Positions 2,167 through 15,883 of a DNA stretch of 64,000 bases are shown here, piece after piece. The stretch is from Promethearchaeota archaeon (GTDB taxonomy: Archaea; Asgardarchaeota; Lokiarchaeia; Sigyniarchaeales; SOKP01): contig JAEOTA010000088.1 in NCBI GenBank assembly GCA_016840085.1, positions 32,001-96,000 on the forward strand, read 5' to 3'. The first letter of the stretch is position 1; each line of letters starts with the position of its first letter. The position numbers were made by a program, and so were the translations under genes. The notes beneath the pieces are model-generated. The model had not been told where the DNA came from, did not search any database, and saw nothing but the letters and a program-made list of their open reading frames with translations.

Positions 2167-2299
2167 TGGACCTGACGGGAATTGAACCCGTGACCTCTTG
2201 AATACGCGAATCTCTCTAAATGATGTGGATTTTGCGAATCAAGCTTAGGATTAATTTATATAATTATAAATTAATGATCTTCCACTGATCTACAGGCCC
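2167..2299 (-). tRNA. tRNA-Ala(CGC) with two introns (25/26: 2245-2275, 31 nt; 37/38: 2203-2232, 30 nt)
   Basis: The spliced sequence GGGCCTG TA GATC AGTGGAA GATC G CTTGA TTCGCAT TCAAG AGGTC ACGGG TTCAATT CCCGT CAGGTCC A forms a full cloverleaf with the G3:U70 Ala identity pair. Both inserts form relaxed bulge-helix-bulge motifs. Confidence 0.92.
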
Positions 2300-4759: not shown

Positions 4760-4843
4760 TTATATCCCTAAATTTTACCAATCATTCAGTTTAATTATAA
4801 TTATAATTGCTCTATTTAATAAACGTTTTTATTATATTTTTTT

Positions 4844-4996
4844 AAAGAAATTCTGGAATTTAAACTTGTTTGGGAAATAGCTTTTAATAAAATCGCTGAA
4901 AAATTTGGAATTTCAAAATCAAAAATAAGTGAAATTTGTAAAAAATATTATATAGAAAAAATAAAAGTTAGTTATTGAATGAAGAATCGGATATAA
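4844..4996 (+). pseudogene. Remnant of a small HTH protein
   Basis: Startless frame KEILEFKLVWEIAFNKIAEKFGISKSKISEICKKYYI...SY*MKNRI. IAEKFGIS..IS is an HTH pattern. TGA at 4976-4978. Confidence 0.35.
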
Positions 4997-5125
4997 GAAA
5001 TTATTTTTTATCTAATATTAAAATCTTATTCTAGAATAAAGTTCAAATCGTATAATCATTATCTATTTGATAATAATAGAATTATTGTAATTTAAAAAAT
5101 TCCCATGAAGAATGGAGAAAATTAA

Positions 5126-5677
5126 ATGCCCTATTCTTATATAACGATAAATTGGAATCTTCCTAAAATAAATTCGAGAAATGAGTTAAGAAAATATGTT
5201 GTACTTAAATTTATGGAGGAAAATCCTGGTCGAGGAACTGGAACATTAGTTTCTAGATATAAATACATAGTTGAAAACTTTTCAGATGGAAGAAAATAAT
5301 ATTTAATTAGACCTGCTCAATATAAGATGGGATTTGATTTTCAAATATGGATGGAGAACTGGAATAAATCTAACATACATAAAATGCCTAGTTATATAGA
5401 CATCATTCAAGATTTAAAACTAAAGGAACAAGAGAATCAACGTAATTTTAACATTTTACTTAAAGCTATAGATAAAATTTTCATATGTGAAGACGATAAC
5501 CGCATTTTAAATTGGTTAAAAGCAAAAAATATAATCTTCTCTGCCGGTGAAAACATTAATGTTTTGCTAAAAATTATTAAATGGATGTTTATTGAACAAG
5601 ATATAAGATATTGGAATTTTAGTGGCCAGATGAAATTAAAAAATTTTATTGATAATAATTTTAAAATCGCACCTTAA
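5126..5677 (+). pseudogene. 183-codon conserved-looking ORF interrupted by an in-frame TAA (5297-5299); possible restriction-type nuclease partner of the nearby methylase
   Basis: The ATG at 5126, preceded by GGAG, is in frame with track ORF 5327..5677 and reads ...ENPGRGTG...FSDGRK*YLIRPAQYKMGFDF...KWMFIEQDIRYWNFSG. The function is inferred from context only. Confidence 0.6.
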
Positions 5678-5726
5678 AATGATAATTATTATATTGGTAG
5701 TAAAATCAAAACTGAAATTTTCTTAA

Positions 5727-6638
5727 TTAATTAACTTTTTCACTTTTCCAAATATAGATTCGATTTCTAATACCACTTTCGAGCATCCAAATTTCATCTT
5801 CACCATTAACTAAGTCTAGTATACTTTTAACAAACAGATTTTTAAAAATAAATCTTATTTGATTTGCTTCAATCAAAGTGTCTTTCTTATGAATACTAGT
5901 ATCTAATTTCTCATCAAACTGTTCAATATTAAAGAGTACTTTATTTTTAATTGGGATGCCAACATGAAATATAAAACGTACTATTGCTGTAGTTTCATCT
6001 ATTAAATATTCATCACCTTTAGTTCTTATAAGGGCAACTTCAGCAAAAGTCTTTAAATCATCTATTTTAAATCTACCTTTAACCGTTCCAATTGAATATC
6101 CTCCAAACCTTTTAGAAATCCAATTACATATTCTCTCTCTATATTGAACTTCAGAATCTTCCTTCTCTTTTGGAAAAGCATTATATAATTCATTTAAGGG
6201 AATTCTATTTAATGTCAACTTAATAGTGTCTTTATAAAAAAGCTCATCTAATGATGACCTTAAATCTGATTCATTTGTTAAGGGCATGAAAAATTCAAAT
6301 ATCATCAAATCTGTATAATATTCTTCTATGTAATCTACTTTAATCTTCGAACTTTGCGAATAAAAACCCCGAAATTTCTTCCATTTCGAATATTTCTTAA
6401 AAATACCAGAAACTAAGAATTTTCCTTTATCATTTGGAGATTCTTCCAGTAAATGTTTAAATTTTTTTGAAAAATATGTTTCAAAATTATCGGGATTTGG
6501 ATAATCTGCAAATTGTTTAAATTCTTCTTTTGAAAAAGCTTCAGGTGTTCGAGAATGGTCTTTTAAAAAAATAAAAGCTCTCCTTATAGGATCTTCAGAA
6601 TTCTCCAAATTTCTCTCTCTAGAATTCATTTTAATCAT
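5727..6638 (-). CDS. Hypothetical protein, 303 aa
   Basis: Long ORF with normal composition; no family recognised. Confidence 0.7.
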   Translation of the reverse strand: MIKMNSRERNLENSEDPIRRAFIFLKDHSRTPEAFSKEEFKQFADYPNPDNFETYFSKKFKHLLEESPNDKGKFLVSGIFKKYSKWKKFRGFYSQSSKIKVDYIEEYYTDLMIFEFFMPLTNESDLRSSLDELFYKDTIKLTLNRIPLNELYNAFPKEKEDSEVQYRERICNWISKRFGGYSIGTVKGRFKIDDLKTFAEVALIRTKGDEYLIDETTAIVRFIFHVGIPIKNKVLFNIEQFDEKLDTSIHKKDTLIEANQIRFIFKNLFVKSILDLVNGEDEIWMLESGIRNRIYIWKSEKVN

Positions 6639-6777
6639 CTTTTGGTTTTAATTTGAAGAAAAAAATTCTCTTAGAATAATTCTCTGTCTAATAATTCTAT
6701 ATTGAAAACGATAGAATAATAAACTTTTTGATTCTTTCTCCAAATTTTATTTCCCATAAAAATAGAATGTGATATTG

Positions 6778-7701
6778 TTAATAATTTAAAATAAGTAAAA
6801 CATTTACATTTCCTCTTTTCGCAGCGTTACAATTAATAGCTCTCCTGGCATTCAGCGTTATAATTTTGTAGTCTTTATATAAGTTTTTTATATATTCATT
6901 ATAAGAATTACTAAGCATAAGCTTACAATCACGATCATCCAACTTTTTAAAAATATTAAGTAATTTTTGTTGAGAATCTTCTTCAAAATTTTCCTTAGTA
7001 TAGCTTGTAAAAGATGATGTTTTCGATATAGGATAATACGGAGGATCAAAATAAATAAAATCACCCTTTTCAGCATAATCTAAACAAATCTCAAAAGAGC
7101 CATAAATTATCTTAAAGTTTTCCAATGCTTTACTTACCGCTAATAGATTTTCCTCATCGCAGAAATTTGGATTTTTATATCTACCAAATGGTACATTGAA
7201 TTGCCCTTTACTGTTCACTCTATATAAGCCATTATAACAACATCTATTCAAATAAATCATTCTGGAGGCTCTTTCTATATTGGATAATTTATTAAACTTT
7301 TCTTTATCTCTATCTAATGCCCTTATTTTATAATAATAGTCTTTCTCATTTTTATGAGTTTTTAGTAATTCTATTAATTCATTTACATTGCTTTTTATAA
7401 CCTTGTAGCAATTGATCAATTCTTCATTAATATCAATTATAATTGAAAATTTTGGTTTCAGATAAAAAAGAACTGCGCCACCACCTACAAATGGTTCAAT
7501 ATATTTGTTAAAATTTTTTGGAAAGTATTTATTCATCTGTGAAATTAATTGTCTTTTCCCTCCTGCCCATTTTAGAAATGGATAAGGGATTTCACTTATT
7601 AAATTTCCATTCTTTTTTTTGATTAAAAATGTATAATTACTATTCTTTTTGGAAAAATCTTGAGTAATATCTTTAAATATTAATTTTTCCTCATCAGACA
7701 A
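6778..7701 (-). CDS. dam: Dam-family (D12 class) N6-adenine DNA methyltransferase
   Basis: PFLKWAGGK, EPFVGGG (motif I), NGLYRVN..G.FNVP and DPPY (motif IV). Confidence 0.93.
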   Translation of the reverse strand: MSDEEKLIFKDITQDFSKKNSNYTFLIKKKNGNLISEIPYPFLKWAGGKRQLISQMNKYFPKNFNKYIEPFVGGGAVLFYLKPKFSIIIDINEELINCYKVIKSNVNELIELLKTHKNEKDYYYKIRALDRDKEKFNKLSNIERASRMIYLNRCCYNGLYRVNSKGQFNVPFGRYKNPNFCDEENLLAVSKALENFKIIYGSFEICLDYAEKGDFIYFDPPYYPISKTSSFTSYTKENFEEDSQQKLLNIFKKLDDRDCKLMLSNSYNEYIKNLYKDYKIITLNARRAINCNAAKRGNVNVLLILNY

Positions 7702-7963
7702 TTTTATTCCTCCATATTATCTATCAATTGCAATATATTTGAAACGTATGTTTATAAACGACAAAACTATTAAATAATTTTTATCAAATTTATAATAATT
7801 TTATATATAATAATTATAATTATAATCTTAAATTATTTTTGCCATTTAAATTAATAAATAGATTATATATAATTAATCTTTAAAAAATTAAATAAATATT
7901 CAATAATATCTAGTCAAAAATGATAAGTAAAAAATTATATATAATTAAAATTTATTAATATTT

Positions 7964-8305
7964 GTGGATGCCGACAAAAAGTCTCTTTTCGAAGTAGTTA
8001 ATTTATTAGATAAAATTTCCAATAAAATTAATTCTGAACTTTCATCATTAAAGAGAAAAATCAATTATACTGTTTTTAAAATCCCATTAAAAAATTATCA
8101 TAAGAATTTTTTAAAAAACATTTTAATCCCTCTTTCTGATAAAAAACCAACTTTTTCAATAATGGATATAGAATTATTATGTAAAAAAACTAAACCTTTA
8201 GAAAAATCAACAATACGTTGCTATTTAAGTGCTTTAAAAAGAAATAATCTTATTATCATAAAAAAAACACAAGATAAAAGAGGTCACCTCTATAAAATAA
8301 TTTGA
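7964..8305 (+). CDS. Small winged-helix DNA-binding protein
   Basis: C-terminal KSTIRCYLSALKRNNLI..K..DKR..LY pattern typical of a wHTH recognition helix and wing. Confidence 0.65.
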   Translation: MDADKKSLFEVVNLLDKISNKINSELSSLKRKINYTVFKIPLKNYHKNFLKNILIPLSDKKPTFSIMDIELLCKKTKPLEKSTIRCYLSALKRNNLIIIKKTQDKRGHLYKII

Positions 8306-8380
8306 AAATAAAATTTCTATTTTTTAATAGAATAGAAGAATTATATTTCTATCTTCATATTATGCAGATTCTTCCTTTTA

Positions 8381-9811
8381 AAAAAGATATAACGAATTCG
8401 ACTGGCTTTAAGCCATACTAAAACAGAAAATCCTTACTCAGACTAAATATAAATATGATTCAAAAGTACTAATTCATACAAATGATTTTATCGCAAAAAA
8501 TTAGGATTTTTCCAACCAAACAGCAAAAATCAGTATTATGGGATTTATCGGAGAAATGCAGATTGGTTTATAATTTTGCGTTAAAGGAAAGAAAAGAAAG
8601 ATGGAATGATAACAAAAATAAACCTAAAAACGAAAGGGTTTATATTACTTATAAAGATCAACAAAATCAATTACCTGAACTTAAGAAAAAATTCCCTGAA
8701 TATAAATGGGTTTATTCTAAAGTACTACAAGCAATATTAAAGAAATTGGATTCAAACTTCAAGTCTTTTTTTACATTGTGGAATAAGGGAGATAAGAAAG
8801 TTAGACCTCCAAAATTTAAAGGAAAGAAATATTTTTCTACCCTATGCTATAATCAATCAGGATTTAGGATTGAAAATAACAAGATCAATTTCTCTCACAA
8901 ACACCCGTCTAGAATTATTTTAGAGTTCACACTTCTTAAAAATTTAATACCTAAAGGAAAAATAAAACAAGTTGAGATCTATTTAAATAACCAAAAGTAT
9001 TGGTTTGTTTTAATAAATTACGAGATTAAAATCCCAAAATATACAGATAACGGATTATACCAAGCATTTGATTTAGGAGTTAATCAAACAGTTGGCGTTA
9101 ACATTTATAGTAAGGTATTTAAGTGTAAACATAAAAGAGCTGACCTCTATTGGAAAAAAAGAATAAGTGAAGTTGAATCCAAAAGAGATCATTGTAATAA
9201 ATTTAGTAATAAATGGAAGTGGTACAATGATAAGAGAAATAGAATGATTAAGAAAAGAACTAATCAACTAAAAGATCATCAGCATTGGTTATCAAAACAG
9301 ATAGTCGAAAATACAAAAGCTAATACTATTATCATAGGAGATTTGAATATTAAGCAAATGGCAAGGAAAAAAAAAGGAACAGGAAACAGAAGAAAGACAA
9401 AGGCTAACAAAACACTTAATCATTCGATTCATAATCTAGGTTATATGAGAAGATTTGTCCAATTCTTAACCTATAAAGCAGAATTATTAGGTAAAAGAGT
9501 AATAAGAATTGACGAATCTTACACAACTCAAACTTGCTGTAGATGTGGTAAAAAAACCAAGAGAAAGTTATCAGAAAGAATTATTTGTTGCGATTGTGGT
9601 AATCTAATTGATAGAGATTTGAACTCTGCTATCAATATAATGGGAAAGTTTCTGAACTCAAAAAAAAATTACGATTACCTATTGCAAGAACGCTCTGTGA
9701 ATGAGCAATCTTTTCTAAATTGTTGGAAAGGGTTTTCTACGATAAACAGCCTTATTAATGAGAATAATGGACTCGTAGGAAGCCATTGCCTTTAGGTGAT
9801 GTGCAATTCAC
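8381..9811 (+). mobile_element. IS200/IS605-family solo-TnpB (IS1341-like) element; left boundary approximate
   Basis: Left subterminal hairpin TGGCT-TTA-AGCCA (8403-8415); right hairpin CATTGCC-TTTA-GGTGATG (9784-9801) followed by TTCAC (9807-9811); no tnpA. Confidence 0.75.
8482..9795 (+). CDS. tnpB: TnpB RNA-guided endonuclease (IS605 OrfB)
   Basis: N-terminal KIRIFPT...CRLVYN, RPPKFK, RuvC-I FDLG, IIIGDL, IDESYTTQTCCRCG..CCDCG Zn finger, and RuvC-III DRDLNSAINI. Confidence 0.95.
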   Translation: MILSQKIRIFPTKQQKSVLWDLSEKCRLVYNFALKERKERWNDNKNKPKNERVYITYKDQQNQLPELKKKFPEYKWVYSKVLQAILKKLDSNFKSFFTLWNKGDKKVRPPKFKGKKYFSTLCYNQSGFRIENNKINFSHKHPSRIILEFTLLKNLIPKGKIKQVEIYLNNQKYWFVLINYEIKIPKYTDNGLYQAFDLGVNQTVGVNIYSKVFKCKHKRADLYWKKRISEVESKRDHCNKFSNKWKWYNDKRNRMIKKRTNQLKDHQHWLSKQIVENTKANTIIIGDLNIKQMARKKKGTGNRRKTKANKTLNHSIHNLGYMRRFVQFLTYKAELLGKRVIRIDESYTTQTCCRCGKKTKRKLSERIICCDCGNLIDRDLNSAINIMGKFLNSKKNYDYLLQERSVNEQSFLNCWKGFSTINSLINENNGLVGSHCL

Positions 9812-9831
9812 TTATTAACTTTAAAGTTTTG
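9650..9831 (+). ncRNA. Predicted TnpB omegaRNA/reRNA (scaffold overlapping the tnpB 3' end; guide from 9812); 5' end approximate
   Basis: Follows from established IS200/605 architecture and the right-end hairpin plus TCAC terminus. No expression evidence. Confidence 0.55.
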
Positions 9832-10053
9832 TCTTATCAAAAACTTAGTATATAATTAAGAAATTTTCAATATTAAAAATATTCCAAAATTAAAATAAGT
9901 CAAATACTTAATGTTCGTATTTCAATAATATATAGATTAACATAAGAATTTTGGAATAAAAATATTCAGAAGCGAGTATTCGTTTAAAGCAAAATTTTAT
10001 TCTATTAACTTTAAAGTTTTATATTATCTAGCACTTAATATTCATGTAAGAAA
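9813..10053 (+). repeat. Degenerate 51-bp direct repeat (9813-9863 / 10003-10053) with an exact first 18 bp containing the palindrome AACTTTAAAGTT
   Basis: Ungapped alignment gives 41/51 identity; tattaactttaaagtttt is exact at 9813-9830 and 10003-10020. Confidence 0.85.
10013..10024 (+). promoter_or_regulatory. Putative BRE/TATA of the AAA-VWA-SWIM operon
   Basis: AAAG-TTTTATAT about 70 bp upstream of the ATG at 10091. Weak evidence in such AT-rich DNA. Confidence 0.35.
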
Positions 10054-10090
10054 AACATCAAAATTCTCTACAAGTATTTGAGCCTTAAAT

Positions 10091-11032
10091 ATGATAGATA
10101 AACAAAAATTTGAGGAATTATTTAATCAACAATTTATCAAAGATATCTCTCAAGAAGATATAGATATCGTTCTTTCAGGCCAATATGGTAAAGCACTTGA
10201 ATTATTAAGGGATGCAGAGGCAACAGGTCTTTTTCCGGCTTTAGTTGGTCCACCAGGAGTTGGAAAAACAATTTTATGTCGATACTTTGCCAGTTTACGC
10301 GCCCGTGAGAGTAAATCAAAAAATTTTTATTGGCTTACTATGGATGAGAGTATTAAACCATCTCATTTTATCGGTTCATTTGATCCAGCAATTACTTTAA
10401 AGAAAGGTTTTATATTAGAAGCCTTTAATCCAGGACCTTTATTAAGTGCTATGTTAGAGGGAGGTACATTCTTAGCGAATGAGATTAATCGAGCCACAGA
10501 ATATTCACAAAATACATTGTTGGAGCCATTAGAAGAAGCTTCAATTGGAATTCCTCATTTAGGTAGGATTAAAGCTCAAGAGGATTTTTTCTTTATATGT
10601 GCGATGAACCCTGAGGAGTTATCAGGAACTCATCGCCTATCTGAAGCATTAAAGGATAGGATAAAAGTATGGATTAAATTAACTTATCCCGATAAATCAA
10701 CAGAACTGGATATAATACGAATAAATTTACCTGAACATTTCCATATCGAGGAATCTGAATTAGAGCTAATATATTCTGTTATAAAAGAAACAAGACAAAA
10801 TAAGATTGATGTTGACATTCCTGCTTCAATTAGGGCTGGAATTGCAATGGCTAAATTATTAGGAAGAAGACGACTTTTAGAAAAAGAAGAAAAAGTAAAA
10901 GAAAAAGAATCTATTTATATATATTTATCTGAAATAGCGAGACATGTATTATTAGGAAGTATAAAACCAAAACCAGGAGTGAAAGTTGAAAATGTCATAG
11001 AAAATATTATTCAAAAAACTTTGGGAGGGTAA
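10091..11032 (+). CDS. MoxR-like AAA+ ATPase (AAA_5 / CbbQ-GvpN-like)
   Basis: Walker A GPPGVGKT, PGPL, Walker B variant FLANEINR, AMNP, LSEALKDR. Confidence 0.9.
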   Translation: MIDKQKFEELFNQQFIKDISQEDIDIVLSGQYGKALELLRDAEATGLFPALVGPPGVGKTILCRYFASLRARESKSKNFYWLTMDESIKPSHFIGSFDPAITLKKGFILEAFNPGPLLSAMLEGGTFLANEINRATEYSQNTLLEPLEEASIGIPHLGRIKAQEDFFFICAMNPEELSGTHRLSEALKDRIKVWIKLTYPDKSTELDIIRINLPEHFHIEESELELIYSVIKETRQNKIDVDIPASIRAGIAMAKLLGRRRLLEKEEKVKEKESIYIYLSEIARHVLLGSIKPKPGVKVENVIENIIQKTLGG

Positions 11033-11036
11033 TTAT

Positions 11037-13526
11037 TTGGGAGTATTTCCTGAAAATCCATGTGAGTTTGCTGTTGAATTTATTCGAAAGATGAGAAACC
11101 ATCCAGACATAATTCAAATACCCTCATCACGTCAAGTATTATCAATTCCTAAATTAATTGTGTCGAGATATTACCGAAAGGGATCTGTAACACCAAGCGA
11201 CTTCATTGAGATTGGTAAGGTTACATCATTCCCAGATAATCAACAATTAGCACAAGAAATTGCTTTTGAGATTTTATTTCCTAATTATAAAAAGAATATA
11301 ATGAAATCATTTTTTGAAGGCACCGAATTCGATGAATTCGAAGAAGAATTAATACCTAGGGAGATAAAATCAGAATTAGATGAATTACAAGAATTAATAG
11401 ATGAAATTGAAGTTACAAAATCGATCGACACTGATTTTATAGAACAAATGGAACAATTTATGGATGAATTAAACCGGAAGAGAAATGAAGAACCATTTAA
11501 GTCTGCTCTTAATTTTTTTGATGATGATTCTGAATTATATAAAGAACAAATTACATCTTTAGAAGAATTATTAGAAGAAGCTAAAAATAGAATGCTCCAA
11601 AAAATTAATTCTTTAGATCCCAAAGACCTCAAAGCTGGTACTAACTTAGGGTTAAATAATCTAATTTTAGAACAATCTTTAAGAGAATGGGAAAAACTTA
11701 CAAGTAAAGCTTTAAATAATCAAAATATTGGGCCTGATTTAAATGAATTATTAAAATCAGGTAGTTTAGAAGATTTACTACAATCTATGAAATTCTTAAA
11801 AGACACCAACGCCATTTCTAAAGAACAATTAGAGGATCTGAGAAATAAACTTCAAAATAAAATAGATAATTTAGATCAATTATTTCAAGCGGCAAAACAT
11901 TTAGGAGAATCTCCTAATTTTAATCAAGATAAAGTATTGAGTAATTCTTTAAAAAATTCTTCATTTGAACATAACTTTAACTTAGCAAATTCCCTTGACC
12001 AATTTTTTGGTACTAACCTTAGAGCCTCATTATTAGAGAAATTTGATCAACAGATTAAAAATTCCCAAATGAATATTTCACTTGAAAGTTTAACTAAAAC
12101 GGCATTTGCTAATAAATCATGGAATTCTCTTTTTAATAACGCTCTTGAAAATGCTATTAATGAAGCCATGAGTCAAAGTAGAAAATCCGAAGCTTTCAAA
12201 ACTTTGACTCATCAAATGCAACAGTTAGCAAATAGTTGCCCAAATATGCATTGTGGTCAAAAAATGGCTCAAACTATTCCAAATTTACTTTCTCAAACTT
12301 TGGAGTCATGTGAAAATCCTTATCAGCTAAAAAATGCTGTCGAATTTTTAAGAAAACTTGGATTAAATCCAGACCTAGAAGATATAAAAAATTCTGGAAA
12401 AAAACTTGAAATGTCAGAGGAGGATATTTTTGAATTAATAGAACCGAATTATCAATTGCTAAAAAAATTAGTTGATAAAAAATCAGCTGATTTTCAACGT
12501 TTAAGTAATTTAATGAATCTACTTAAAGATCAATTAAACTATGAGAGAATTAAAGAACTAGTATCAAGTGCTTTAGCTTCAGATAATAGAGATGCTTTAG
12601 GTGCTTTAGGGAATTTTAATCTAAGTGATGCTTTAAGAGGTGCTCAACAAATTGGTGGTAAAGAAGCACAAGATAAGATGATTTCCTGTCTAACTGCAGG
12701 TAGTGGTGAAAATCTCCTTAAACAATGGTTTATCCACCGAAAAAGCTTACCAGAGAATGCAAAGCAGAAAGTAAAAGAATTAGCAAAAAAAGTTTTGATC
12801 GAGCTTGGGATCTATTACTCTCGCGCTCGTTTAGGTAGCTCCACAACAGGACCAATTCCTATTAATATAGTTAGACCCTACTCAATAGGAGATGATTTTG
12901 AAAATATTGATCTTGAAGAAACAATTTTTAATATCTTAGAGAAAGGAAAGAAATTAGAACATATAGAATATGATGATTTTTTCGTTTTTGAAACAGCTAA
13001 GGGTCTTAGAACTGCTTGTTTTGAATTGGATATTTCCGGAAGTATGTCTGGAGACAAACTGGCTTATATGGGGATCTGTGTAACAATGTTGTGCTATGGG
13101 ATGCGTAAAGATGAACTTGGAATCACTTTCTTTGAATCGGACACTCATGTTTTAAAATCTTTAGATGAAAAAGTAGATTTAGATAAATTAGCAGATGAGC
13201 TCCTTTCTGTTTCTGCTCGAGGTGGTACAAGAATACAAAGTGCCGTTGAATGGGCAAATAAGCAATTTAAAGAGCATTCAAATTCGCGTGAAAAATTAAA
13301 TGTATTATTTACTGATGCTGAAATTTTCGATCTTAAAGAAGCTATGACAGAATTTAGAAAAATGCGTTCGTTAGGCGTAGATTTCATCTTAATTTGTCCT
13401 GAATCTTCTTATAATTTAAAAGAGGCTAAAAAAATGGTAAAAGTTGCTGGAGGACAACTTTTAACAATTAAAGATTGGAATGAGTTTCCCAAATTAATTT
13501 CAGAGATAATAAAATCAAGATTCTAA
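11037..13526 (+). CDS. Large helical protein with a C-terminal VWA domain
   Basis: MIDAS LDISGSM, GGT, and LFTD; directly downstream of the AAA gene. Confidence 0.88.
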   Translation: MGVFPENPCEFAVEFIRKMRNHPDIIQIPSSRQVLSIPKLIVSRYYRKGSVTPSDFIEIGKVTSFPDNQQLAQEIAFEILFPNYKKNIMKSFFEGTEFDEFEEELIPREIKSELDELQELIDEIEVTKSIDTDFIEQMEQFMDELNRKRNEEPFKSALNFFDDDSELYKEQITSLEELLEEAKNRMLQKINSLDPKDLKAGTNLGLNNLILEQSLREWEKLTSKALNNQNIGPDLNELLKSGSLEDLLQSMKFLKDTNAISKEQLEDLRNKLQNKIDNLDQLFQAAKHLGESPNFNQDKVLSNSLKNSSFEHNFNLANSLDQFFGTNLRASLLEKFDQQIKNSQMNISLESLTKTAFANKSWNSLFNNALENAINEAMSQSRKSEAFKTLTHQMQQLANSCPNMHCGQKMAQTIPNLLSQTLESCENPYQLKNAVEFLRKLGLNPDLEDIKNSGKKLEMSEEDIFELIEPNYQLLKKLVDKKSADFQRLSNLMNLLKDQLNYERIKELVSSALASDNRDALGALGNFNLSDALRGAQQIGGKEAQDKMISCLTAGSGENLLKQWFIHRKSLPENAKQKVKELAKKVLIELGIYYSRARLGSSTTGPIPINIVRPYSIGDDFENIDLEETIFNILEKGKKLEHIEYDDFFVFETAKGLRTACFELDISGSMSGDKLAYMGICVTMLCYGMRKDELGITFFESDTHVLKSLDEKVDLDKLADELLSVSARGGTRIQSAVEWANKQFKEHSNSREKLNVLFTDAEIFDLKEAMTEFRKMRSLGVDFILICPESSYNLKEAKKMVKVAGGQLLTIKDWNEFPKLISEIIKSRF

Positions 13527-13534
13527 ATGTTAAG

Positions 13535-15883
13535 ATGACAAATAAATCAATATCAAGTCTAATAATAGATAAGTTCGGTTTAAACCTTTACCAAAAAAGT
13601 CTTAAATTCCTAAGTAATAAAATAAATATTTTCTATTTACGAGAAGAACCAATAAAAATTAGAAGTGTTATTTTAGATAATGAACGTGAATATCATCTTA
13701 TAATTGATGAAATGAAATCTGAAATATATCATGACTGCCCATCTTTTTTGATTCATTCTGAAAGAGAAAGGAAAATTTGTGTTCATCTTATTAAACTTTT
13801 TTTAATCATCAAAAACCAACTCTCTCAAAAAATCTTAGAAAATTTAAATACTTATAATTTTACTTCAGAAGATTTAGTTTCAAAAAAAAAAAGCAAAAAC
13901 TTTTTGTTATTAGCTAATAATTGCTTTGAAAGCGAAAATTATGTTGAAGCACTGAGTTATTTAAATAAAGCGATTATTAACCAATATGATAAAGAGCCTA
14001 TTATTGAAACTTATTTCAAAACAGCAATAGAAAACAATTTATTCATTGAATTCTTTGACTTTTTAAAATATGGATATGAAAATGAGTTAGGAGATTATTT
14101 TATTAAAAATATTGAGTTTGTAGAAAAAGGTTTTAAAAAATTTTTAAACATTATTCCACAATATTCTTTCTATAATTTACTTAATATAATTGAATCTATT
14201 GATATAATTTTTAATTTCATTGATATATCTTTTATAGCTTCAGATATAAATAATATAAAAAAATTAGTTAATAGCACCAATTTTAATGATAATTACTTCT
14301 CAATTTATTTGGTAAAAAAAAATTATGATAGACTTGTTGAAACAAATCCAAACTTCAAGGATATAATCAATCAGAATAAATTAGATTCGTTAAAACATGA
14401 AATTTTGAATTATTTTTTTTCTGAAATTGATAACTTTTGCATAATTAACAAATTAAAATTGTTAAAAAAACAGTTCAAAGTAATAGATATTCCAAAAGAA
14501 AAATTTTATATTAAATATAAAAAATACAAGATAGAAATAAAAGAACTTGAAAGAAAAGTATATTTGAAAAAATTTTCGTTTTTAAAATTTTTAATAGAAA
14601 AATATAATGTAATTAGAACTAAAGGGGAATTCAGAAAAAAAAGGAATGCGTATATTGTTAAACATAATACAGATAATATAAAAAATCCCGTTTATCACTA
14701 TATAATTTCTCGTGTTGGCTTTTTTGGATTAAATGAGCAAACAATTAAATCATCTGAAATCGGTATTAATTACTTTATTATGAAAGAATTATTTTTAGAT
14801 GATTTGAGTTCCTTTCAGGATGTTGACTATTATAGAAAACAATTCTGGGGAGAAAATGAGTATGATATAAGATCAATTAATGGTTTTTCTTTGTTAAGTA
14901 AAAATATAGAGTATAGTTATAAAGGAGAACAAAAATATTCAGATGATGTAATGCTTATTGAATGGGATCTAGCAAGTAAACCCATTCAAGGAAGTATTGT
15001 GAATGCTTATGGCTCTCAAATTATAATTCCAGATCAAAACAATCCGTTATTTCATGATTTAAAACCTTTTGATCTCTGTTATTGTAAAAAAACTCCTGTA
15101 AAAATAGAGAGTATTATCAAAACAATTAATATAATTACAAAGTGCTCATTTAAAGATGCAATTAAAAGTATTTCTAAACGAATGGCTTTTATAGAAGGAT
15201 ATTATCCATTATCACTTATAAAAGCAGTTTTAAACAAAGAAATAAATCCTTTTCAAGCAAATGAAATAGTAATAACTAATCCAAACAAATTATTTATACC
15301 AAATTACTCTCACTTTATTAAAGCTTTTAAAAAATTCTTATTTGATTTTATATTTAAACAGAAAGATTATATTTTTCAACAATTAAAATCAGAACCTAAA
15401 GAGAGATCACATCAAATCCTTACATTATTGGATTTGAGGAATGAATTAAGTGGAATAGATTTGCCATACTTAGAAATTATGAAAGATATACTTCACTCTA
15501 ATATTAATTTAAAAGATTTTAAAATAAGATTTTTGAATGAAATACACTTATATATAAAGGAATTGTTGAACAAACGAGATATTGGGACCACAATAATGTT
15601 TGATTTGAAAAAATTACGAAATACCTCTTTTTCAAAATATTCCAATCAAATCTTAAATATTAGGAAAGAAGAATTTGAATCATCTAAGATCTATAAATCT
15701 CAGAATAAAAATGAAATTAATTATAATATTTCAGAAATAAATAGAACCTATTATGGTAGTAAGTTTTTAAATATCTTAGATTTAGAAGATCGATTCACTC
15801 TTAAACCAGAAAAATTTAAAAAGTTCTCTGATTTTTCTTTAAAGTTAAATCTAAAATTAAATATTGTAGACTCCTTTAATTGA
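13535..15883 (+). CDS. SWIM-type Zn-finger protein
   Basis: N-terminal HDCPSF...ICVH followed by a TPR-like helical stretch. Confidence 0.7.
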   Translation: MTNKSISSLIIDKFGLNLYQKSLKFLSNKINIFYLREEPIKIRSVILDNEREYHLIIDEMKSEIYHDCPSFLIHSERERKICVHLIKLFLIIKNQLSQKILENLNTYNFTSEDLVSKKKSKNFLLLANNCFESENYVEALSYLNKAIINQYDKEPIIETYFKTAIENNLFIEFFDFLKYGYENELGDYFIKNIEFVEKGFKKFLNIIPQYSFYNLLNIIESIDIIFNFIDISFIASDINNIKKLVNSTNFNDNYFSIYLVKKNYDRLVETNPNFKDIINQNKLDSLKHEILNYFFSEIDNFCIINKLKLLKKQFKVIDIPKEKFYIKYKKYKIEIKELERKVYLKKFSFLKFLIEKYNVIRTKGEFRKKRNAYIVKHNTDNIKNPVYHYIISRVGFFGLNEQTIKSSEIGINYFIMKELFLDDLSSFQDVDYYRKQFWGENEYDIRSINGFSLLSKNIEYSYKGEQKYSDDVMLIEWDLASKPIQGSIVNAYGSQIIIPDQNNPLFHDLKPFDLCYCKKTPVKIESIIKTINIITKCSFKDAIKSISKRMAFIEGYYPLSLIKAVLNKEINPFQANEIVITNPNKLFIPNYSHFIKAFKKFLFDFIFKQKDYIFQQLKSEPKERSHQILTLLDLRNELSGIDLPYLEIMKDILHSNINLKDFKIRFLNEIHLYIKELLNKRDIGTTIMFDLKKLRNTSFSKYSNQILNIRKEEFESSKIYKSQNKNEINYNISEINRTYYGSKFLNILDLEDRFTLKPEKFKKFSDFSLKLNLKLNIVDSFN

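Follow-up and report, generated by a model that had tools for sequence, protein, structure and literature searches.

We describe a putative TnpB element in a 64,000-nt stretch of Promethearchaeota archaeon DNA (assembly GCA_016840085.1, contig JAEOTA010000088.1, positions 32,001 to 96,000; hereafter the window). The element lies upstream of an operon for a MoxR-type AAA+ ATPase, a vWA-domain protein, and a protein with a SWIM-like motif, and the predicted guide of its omegaRNA matches the promoter of that operon. By its sequence, the element is a TnpB-only member of the IS605 family with a rearranged RuvC domain, and its guide is promoter DNA of its own insertion site. We consider it likely that the guide targets the vacant allele of that site, here beside a promoter copy that lacks the target-adjacent motif (TAM) and would be immune. 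A regulatory role would be unnecessary in this explanation.

The guide match

The motif that ends the element, TCAC, occupies 9808–9811, and the predicted guide starts at 9812. An earlier note on this DNA, made from the sequence alone, had set the end at 9811. This is borne out by seventeen related right ends and a conserved scaffold-closing helix (9806–9811), and empty-site comparisons in relatives likewise place the right boundary directly after TCAC. Beyond it lies a 51-nt direct repeat (copy 1, 9813–9863; copy 2, 10003–10053; spacing 190). The two copies differ at ten positions of the repeat (19, 21, 27, 29, 30, 36, 40, 41, 43, and 44) and at none of positions 1–18, just as the earlier note had described. 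The predicted guide (9812–9830, plus strand) is made up of the first 19 nt of promoter copy 1 and, over its nt 2–19, matches 10003–10020 at 18/18 positions. This 18-mer was found at only two places in the 4.68-Mb genome, searched at up to one mismatch, and the chance of a fixed 18-mer occurring within about 600 bp is about 4e-6 under local composition. Three short-read Logan contigs from three sequencing runs are identical over 7982–10181, as far as each contig reaches, so the arrangement is not an artefact of a single assembly. In all of these respects the guide match first reported in the note holds.

Copy 2 is preceded by TTATT in register with the guide, or by TTTAT one base out of register. 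Its TAM position (9996–10002, plus strand) reads TTATT, with a C at guide position 1; in relatives, the corresponding sequence is TTTAA followed by T. Past 52 nt, the similarity between the copies is not significant against shuffles. A tandem duplication of the full 190 bp, with a decayed AAA start inside it, was considered and rejected, as 158/500 and 231/500 shuffles aligned equally well beyond that point.

The native promoter and its vacant allele

Copy 2 opens the native promoter and 5′ leader of the AAA operon (10003–10090, plus strand), with a palindromic core at 10007–10018 and a B recognition element (BRE)/TATA-like motif at 10013–10024. In the same genus, where the insertion sequence (IS) is missing, a single repeat copy nearly always precedes the AAA gene, flanked by a divergent 278-aa methyltransferase on one side and by the MoxR-vWA-SWIM operon on the other. 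Among twenty-eight such IS-free loci, twenty-four have TTTAA directly before the guide sequence, twenty-seven differ from the 19-nt guide at no more than one position, and twenty-two combine TTTAA with the exact first 16 nt of the guide. The closest IS-free contigs (L212–L214; AAA 98–99% identical) are the same as the window from 10003 to the ATG, which identifies copy 2 as the native promoter. At the junction these contigs read TTTAA-T and the window reads TTATT-C. The guide therefore has 19/19 matches to the vacant allele behind a perfect TTTAA, versus 18/19 to the neighbouring copy behind TTATT.

Copy 1 looks different past the guide. In its decayed tail (9831–9863, plus strand), the TATA-like box is broken at 9831 and 9833, and the bases at copy positions 20, 22, 31, 37, and 45 are never seen in the twenty-eight same-genus IS-free promoters. 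With the plus-strand TATA-like box disrupted at nt 20 and 22, copy 1 is unlikely to be a working AAA promoter. BRE/TATA-like motifs show modest enrichment upstream of genes (11 vs 2.3 expected from whole-genome background); a sigma-70 promoter scan is uninformative for archaea.

As one possible origin, the earlier note had proposed that the IS landed in one of two older operator repeats. The relatives do not bear this out, as those without the IS have one copy, which is the AAA promoter itself, and only G025 has two. This sole same-genus IS-free locus with a second copy carries it 1.6 kb upstream, around an inserted gene, and therefore the AAA promoter can duplicate without an IS. (At this locus, L083 on G025:C138, the promoter duplicate flanks an inserted gene of 403 aa.) Comparing empty sites in related genomes, as the note had also proposed, recovers the single promoter copy without the IS, but the 190-bp tandem arrangement in none of the twenty-eight same-genus loci. 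The caveat that the palindrome could be a transcription factor site in its own right was well placed, for in IS-free genomes the palindrome forms the conserved core of a divergent promoter.

The element and its nuclease

The tnpB gene (8482–9795, plus strand) is uninterrupted and encodes a 437-aa IS200/IS605-family protein with Pfam matches to HTH_OrfB_IS605, OrfB_IS605, and Cas12f1-like_TNB. Its closest homologue is only 67% identical, and its relatives come from Promethearchaeia metagenome-assembled genomes (MAGs), by which the host would be an Asgard archaeon of Loki type. The RuvC triad (9070–9618, plus strand) is rearranged: Asp197 (9070) and Asp379 (9616) are accompanied by Gly286 (9337) at the position of the canonical RuvC-II Glu and by an alternative Glu345 (9514), which sits before the zinc finger, 59 residues downstream. 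Each of the four residues is common to 99–100 of 100 aligned TnpB homologues, and Gly286 and Glu345 are shared by ninety-nine. This rearranged layout is active in TvTnpB and Fanzors (PMC10530073). TnpB2 and TvTnpB (Jiang et al. 2023, PMC10530073) share with the window protein, known from sequence alone, the Gly at the canonical Glu and the alternative Glu before the zinc finger, but there the latter lies about 45 residues downstream. The window nuclease thus looks intact for an enzyme of the rearranged type. The intact triad of the earlier note stands in that sense (D197, E345, and D379 are present) and fails for the canonical RuvC-II Glu, which is Gly.

A right-end hairpin at 9784–9801 (plus strand) is supported by right-end alignment and consensus fold. 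The consensus fold of seventeen right ends also predicts an omegaRNA scaffold (9697–9811, plus strand), with double changes in thirteen of thirty-seven pairs. Its outer helix pairs 9697–9702 with 9806–9811, and here the window has a compensatory U-A where thirteen others have C-G. Such a pair in a covarying fold argues that the scaffold is maintained and ends at 9811. No Rfam family was found within 8200–10200. The right-end hairpin, end motif, and flank-derived guide are those of an IS200/IS605 element. The tentative left end (8377–8415, plus strand) consists of TTTAA at 8377–8381 and a weak hairpin at 8403–8415, placed with low confidence by left-end alignment. Another TTTAA, at 8323–8327, was rejected because it lies in a stretch with weak similarity (7/500 shuffles) to the cassette junction of G005, which has no IS. 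Elsewhere in the host genome there is a truncated N-terminal fragment of a related tnpB (90 aa, 60% identical; G000:C69:142201–142470), along with at least nine further TnpB-like loci of other families.

The target-adjacent motif

Empty orthologous sites were recovered for nine related insertions, five of which have TTTAA and four TTTAT or TCTAT; searches for L038 and L046 gave nothing usable. In ISDra2 TnpB, S56 contacts TAM position -1 (PMC10097598). The corresponding residue is Q in 5/5 TTTAA elements and S in 4/4 of the others, which have T at -1. Across all nine elements with empty sites, Q or S thus tracks A or T at TAM -1, although the two groups are clades and hence represent one change. 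The window TnpB is Q-type, with Gln61 (8662–8664, plus strand) equivalent to Ser56 in an alignment to 8BF8/8H1J. As two independent lines agree, residue Q61 and the vacant allele, TTTAA is indicated as the TAM of the window enzyme.

Copy 2 departs from TTTAA at -3, -2, and -1, and from the guide at nt 1. In Sulfolobus TnpB7, also a TTTAA enzyme, TAM positions -3 and -1 matter most (PMC11043419). With TTATT and a first-base mismatch, copy 2 is probably not cut. This supports the second possibility raised in the earlier note, an escaped self-target: TTATT stands where TTTAA is expected, and the site differs from the guide at nt 1. The host genome contains no TTTAA-licensed guide match of at least 12 nt. 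One TnpB insertion site in the genus is filled in two species (L062 in G023 and L251 in G102) and empty in at least six others; shared ancestry and homing across species are candidate explanations.

How the arrangement may have arisen

In the explanation that we favour, the TnpB-only element would have inserted directly behind TTTAA in the divergent MoxR-vWA-SWIM promoter, or in a copy of it, and owing to that position its guide is the promoter core. The natural target would be the vacant TTTAA-plus-core allele carried by most relatives. Where a vacant allele arises by excision or enters by recombination, the ribonucleoprotein (RNP) would cut it, and repair from the filled allele would retain or spread the element. 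This cut-and-restore model has been demonstrated for IS605 TnpB (PMC10055086). Cutting and repair would keep the guide-length stretch unchanged and let the rest of the flank drift. The operon would be served by the second, native promoter copy, whose altered TAM and first target base would allow it to escape recognition. The insertion geometry, the TAMs of the family, the native copy, and the intact scaffold and triad can be read directly from the alignments; we infer the TAM of the window enzyme itself, its activity, homing, and the order of events.

The native promoter may have been joined at about 9996–10003 by a foreign left segment comprising pfl, the dam cassette, the IS, and copy 1. The DNA left of copy 2 differs from that of relatives, with a Dam-type cassette that also occurs IS-free in G005, G109, G097, and L209, and the window pfl gene is only 65% identical to the pfl of L212. 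These mosaic identities suggest gene flow at the locus.

Several points weigh against this explanation. The window TnpB forms a separate branch that belongs to neither TAM group, and its TAM is read from one residue plus the vacant allele. No Y1 TnpA adjoins tnpB, nor does the 98.8%-complete MAG have a PF01797 match, which makes the element non-autonomous and IS1341-like. The left end is decayed, with several TTTAA candidates and no intact hairpin. Because of the missing TnpA and this decay, other cells would have to supply the vacant alleles. In the IS-free genomes G012 and G095, conservation begins at the promoter core and the junction falls at nearly the same place as in the window, which weakens the argument that a junction exactly at the TAM proves counter-selection. 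Across 135 family genomes and a metagenome scan, the tandem arrangement occurs in one lineage only. No other insertion of the window element in an AAA promoter was found among the fetched family TnpB loci or in the metagenome pattern scan (forty-three matches, none with the right end).

Mismatch distribution and alternative explanations

The two copies differ at 0/18 positions within the core and 10/33 beyond it (Fisher P = 0.009 before ascertainment). The same shape appears where there is no IS. Among IS-free promoters from several genera, chosen by their AAA protein (L022, L025, L154, L186, L192, L194, and L196), differences from copy 2 number 0–1 in the core and 9–15 in the tail (core|tail: 0|14, 1|11, 1|11, 1|9, 1|13, 1|14, and 1|15), because the core is the constrained part. 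It also appears at unrelated sites. We compared the right flanks of five related TTTAA-type insertions (L039, L041, L043, L063, and L065) with empty alleles (L229–L245, L291, and L293) and found differences at 9/162 positions in nt 1–18 and 92/297 in nt 19–51. Between empty alleles the corresponding counts are 6/72 and 20/132. The related sites are few and non-independent, and P-values from this comparison overstate. As both IS-free promoters and related insertions reproduce the pattern, mismatches that lie only beyond 18 nt are not evidence of cis regulation. Guide-length preservation thus appears to be a family trait directed at vacant alleles, and the finding that about 18 nt match vacant alleles elsewhere, with the next 33 nt drifting, may be a population signature of selection on guides.

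The earlier note had also proposed checking other copies of this tnpB for guide conservation. None of twenty-eight related TnpB loci has a local target, the best match being 14/18 (4–7 mismatches in 18), and we rejected cis targets as a family trait. Two related guides, searched genome-wide, had no second site in their own, incomplete MAGs.

The first 19 nt of copy 1 could also have been preserved independently of RNA, either kept as a protein-binding element, through the palindromic core and the minus-strand BRE/TATA half, or inherited from a donor promoter with a diverged tail, TnpB being a passenger. The IS-free promoters with conserved cores and divergent tails fit this account, as does the G025 duplicate, and the minus-strand half of the promoter (BRE/TATA) falls wholly inside the preserved 19 nt. 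However, five bases of copy 1 are unseen in promoters of the same genus, and two of these fall in the TATA box that directly follows nt 19. The same preservation over the guide length is found at unrelated sites where TnpBs of this family have inserted, and both scaffold and triad are maintained. We regard this account as unlikely.

In-cis regulation, the first possibility in the earlier note, would have the RNP bind the native promoter without cutting, by way of a weak TAM or of TTTAT with a one-base DNA bulge, so that TBP/TFB are blocked and MoxR-vWA-SWIM expression is lowered. The 18 perfect pairs span the BRE/TATA-like core, and the guide is unchanged next to a broken copy-1 TATA box (the 0/18 vs 10/33 contrast above). 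The tnpB gene stands alone, is intact, and has diverged by 33% from every known homologue. A TTTAT does occur at an offset of one base from the register of the guide, and TAM variants are tolerated by some archaeal TnpBs. On the other hand, TnpB binding is dominated by the TAM (PMC10055086), and loci bearing TldR, the domesticated repressor derived from TnpB, escape binding through TAM and seed changes (PMC10705468), the state seen at copy 2. The triad is intact, unlike that of TldR, and every testable TldR feature failed. The same conservation pattern is found at promoters without an IS and in relatives that have no local target, and the arrangement is conserved in no other genome searched. 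Regulation in cis is thus not supported, and we judge it quite improbable. In its most specific form, an immobilised and catalytically intact TnpB would bind its neighbour's promoter through a degenerate TAM (TTTAT, one-base bulge), leave it uncut, and dampen the operon; we give this slightly less credence again. If true, such binding would mark an early stage, in cis, on the way to a TldR-like regulator, reached through loss of the TAM on the target side and not of the active site, and so a route to RNA-guided regulators that retains the nuclease.

A variant of the favoured explanation, in which TnpB cut a TAM-bearing native promoter and TTATT-C is an escape mutation and not a recombination boundary, is highly improbable: although two edits (A to T at TAM -1 and a C inserted after nt 1), both at positions that TnpB reads, turn the junction of relatives into that of the window, homology ends a few bases further left, and G012 and G095, which lack the IS, have a junction in nearly the same position, since conservation starts at the promoter core.

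Comparison with known systems

The window element resembles the IS200/IS605 TnpB-omegaRNA systems (ISDra2, ISGst2; Meers et al., PMC10055086), including the TnpB-only IS1341-like forms, in its right-end hairpin, TCAC end, and right-flank guide. There, too, the TAM equals the insertion motif and the vacant allele is the target, the window TAM being an indirect reading. It differs in having no TnpA in the MAG, a decayed left end, a rearranged RuvC, and a TAM-less target copy 190 bp away in cis. Sulfolobus islandicus TnpB7 (PMC11043419) is likewise archaeal, with a TTTAA TAM and a guide starting right after UUCAC. That TAM was measured, whereas ours comes from comparison.

TldR (Wiegand et al., PMC10705468) shares with the window a guide complementary to a promoter region, and the fliC-P promoter, which escapes TldR by TAM and seed changes, resembles window copy 2. 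Here the likeness stops. TldR proteins have two or more catalytic substitutions, whereas the window keeps D197, E345, and D379. Their targets have a cognate TAM, whereas copy 2 has TTATT in place of the expected TTTAA, plus the mismatch at guide nt 1. TldRs also have a conserved gene association and guide-target pair, and the window arrangement occurs in a single lineage.

Under the favoured explanation, the window would be a clean natural example of a TnpB guide that matches a promoter without a regulatory role: the IS occupies a conserved promoter, of which the host retains a TAM-less copy. It cautions that a guide-promoter match need not mean domestication. Guide-length matching to vacant alleles would be predicted if guides are under selection for retention or homing, here in a host without detectable TnpA. 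The Q/S residue that tracks TAM -1 and the guide-length preservation may be the more useful by-products, and both are testable.

Other features of the locus

The MoxR-type AAA+ ATPase (10091–11032, plus strand; Pfam AAA_5/AAA_3) has orthologues across the family. Its Walker B motif reads LANE, with Asn replacing Asp. It is followed by the vWA-domain protein (11037–13526, plus strand; Pfam VWA_2) and by a 782-aa protein (13535–15883, plus strand) without a Pfam match, in which an N-terminal HxC..CxH (SWIM-like) motif was read from the sequence.

Between the copies lies an AT-rich spacer (9864–9995); no significant homologue turned up in fifty-three genomes of the genus, in the AAA 5′ end, or in the G025 insert. 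Derivation of the spacer from an inserted gene of the G025 type, or from its leader, was rejected, since the similarity is not significant and that gene was not found in the host genome.

Upstream of the element, a D12-class adenine methyltransferase (6778–7701, minus strand) belongs to the cassette that replaces the usual 278-aa methyltransferase, of which no protein-level remnant was detected. A small putative helix-turn-helix (HTH) gene of this Dam-type cassette (7964–8305, plus strand) lies between dam and AAA without tnpB in G097, G109, G005, and L209, and we rejected it as a TnpB partner. The interval between pfl and AAA (window 4760–8305; L073–L092) is a swap hotspot, with the 278-aa N6/N4 methyltransferase in most relatives and the Dam-type cassette in others. 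The pfl gene occurs in relatives as two sequence types, about 65% and 80–85% identical to the window copy. A 189-aa gene of G005 appears split in the window (5125–5677) into called genes of 57 aa and 116 aa. Finally, reading by eye places at window 2168–2299 (minus strand) a tRNA-Ala(CGC)-like gene that ARAGORN misses. It has a G3:U70 acceptor pair, an intact T-loop, and apparently a pair of introns, of which one follows the anticodon and the other separates the D arm from the anticodon stem.

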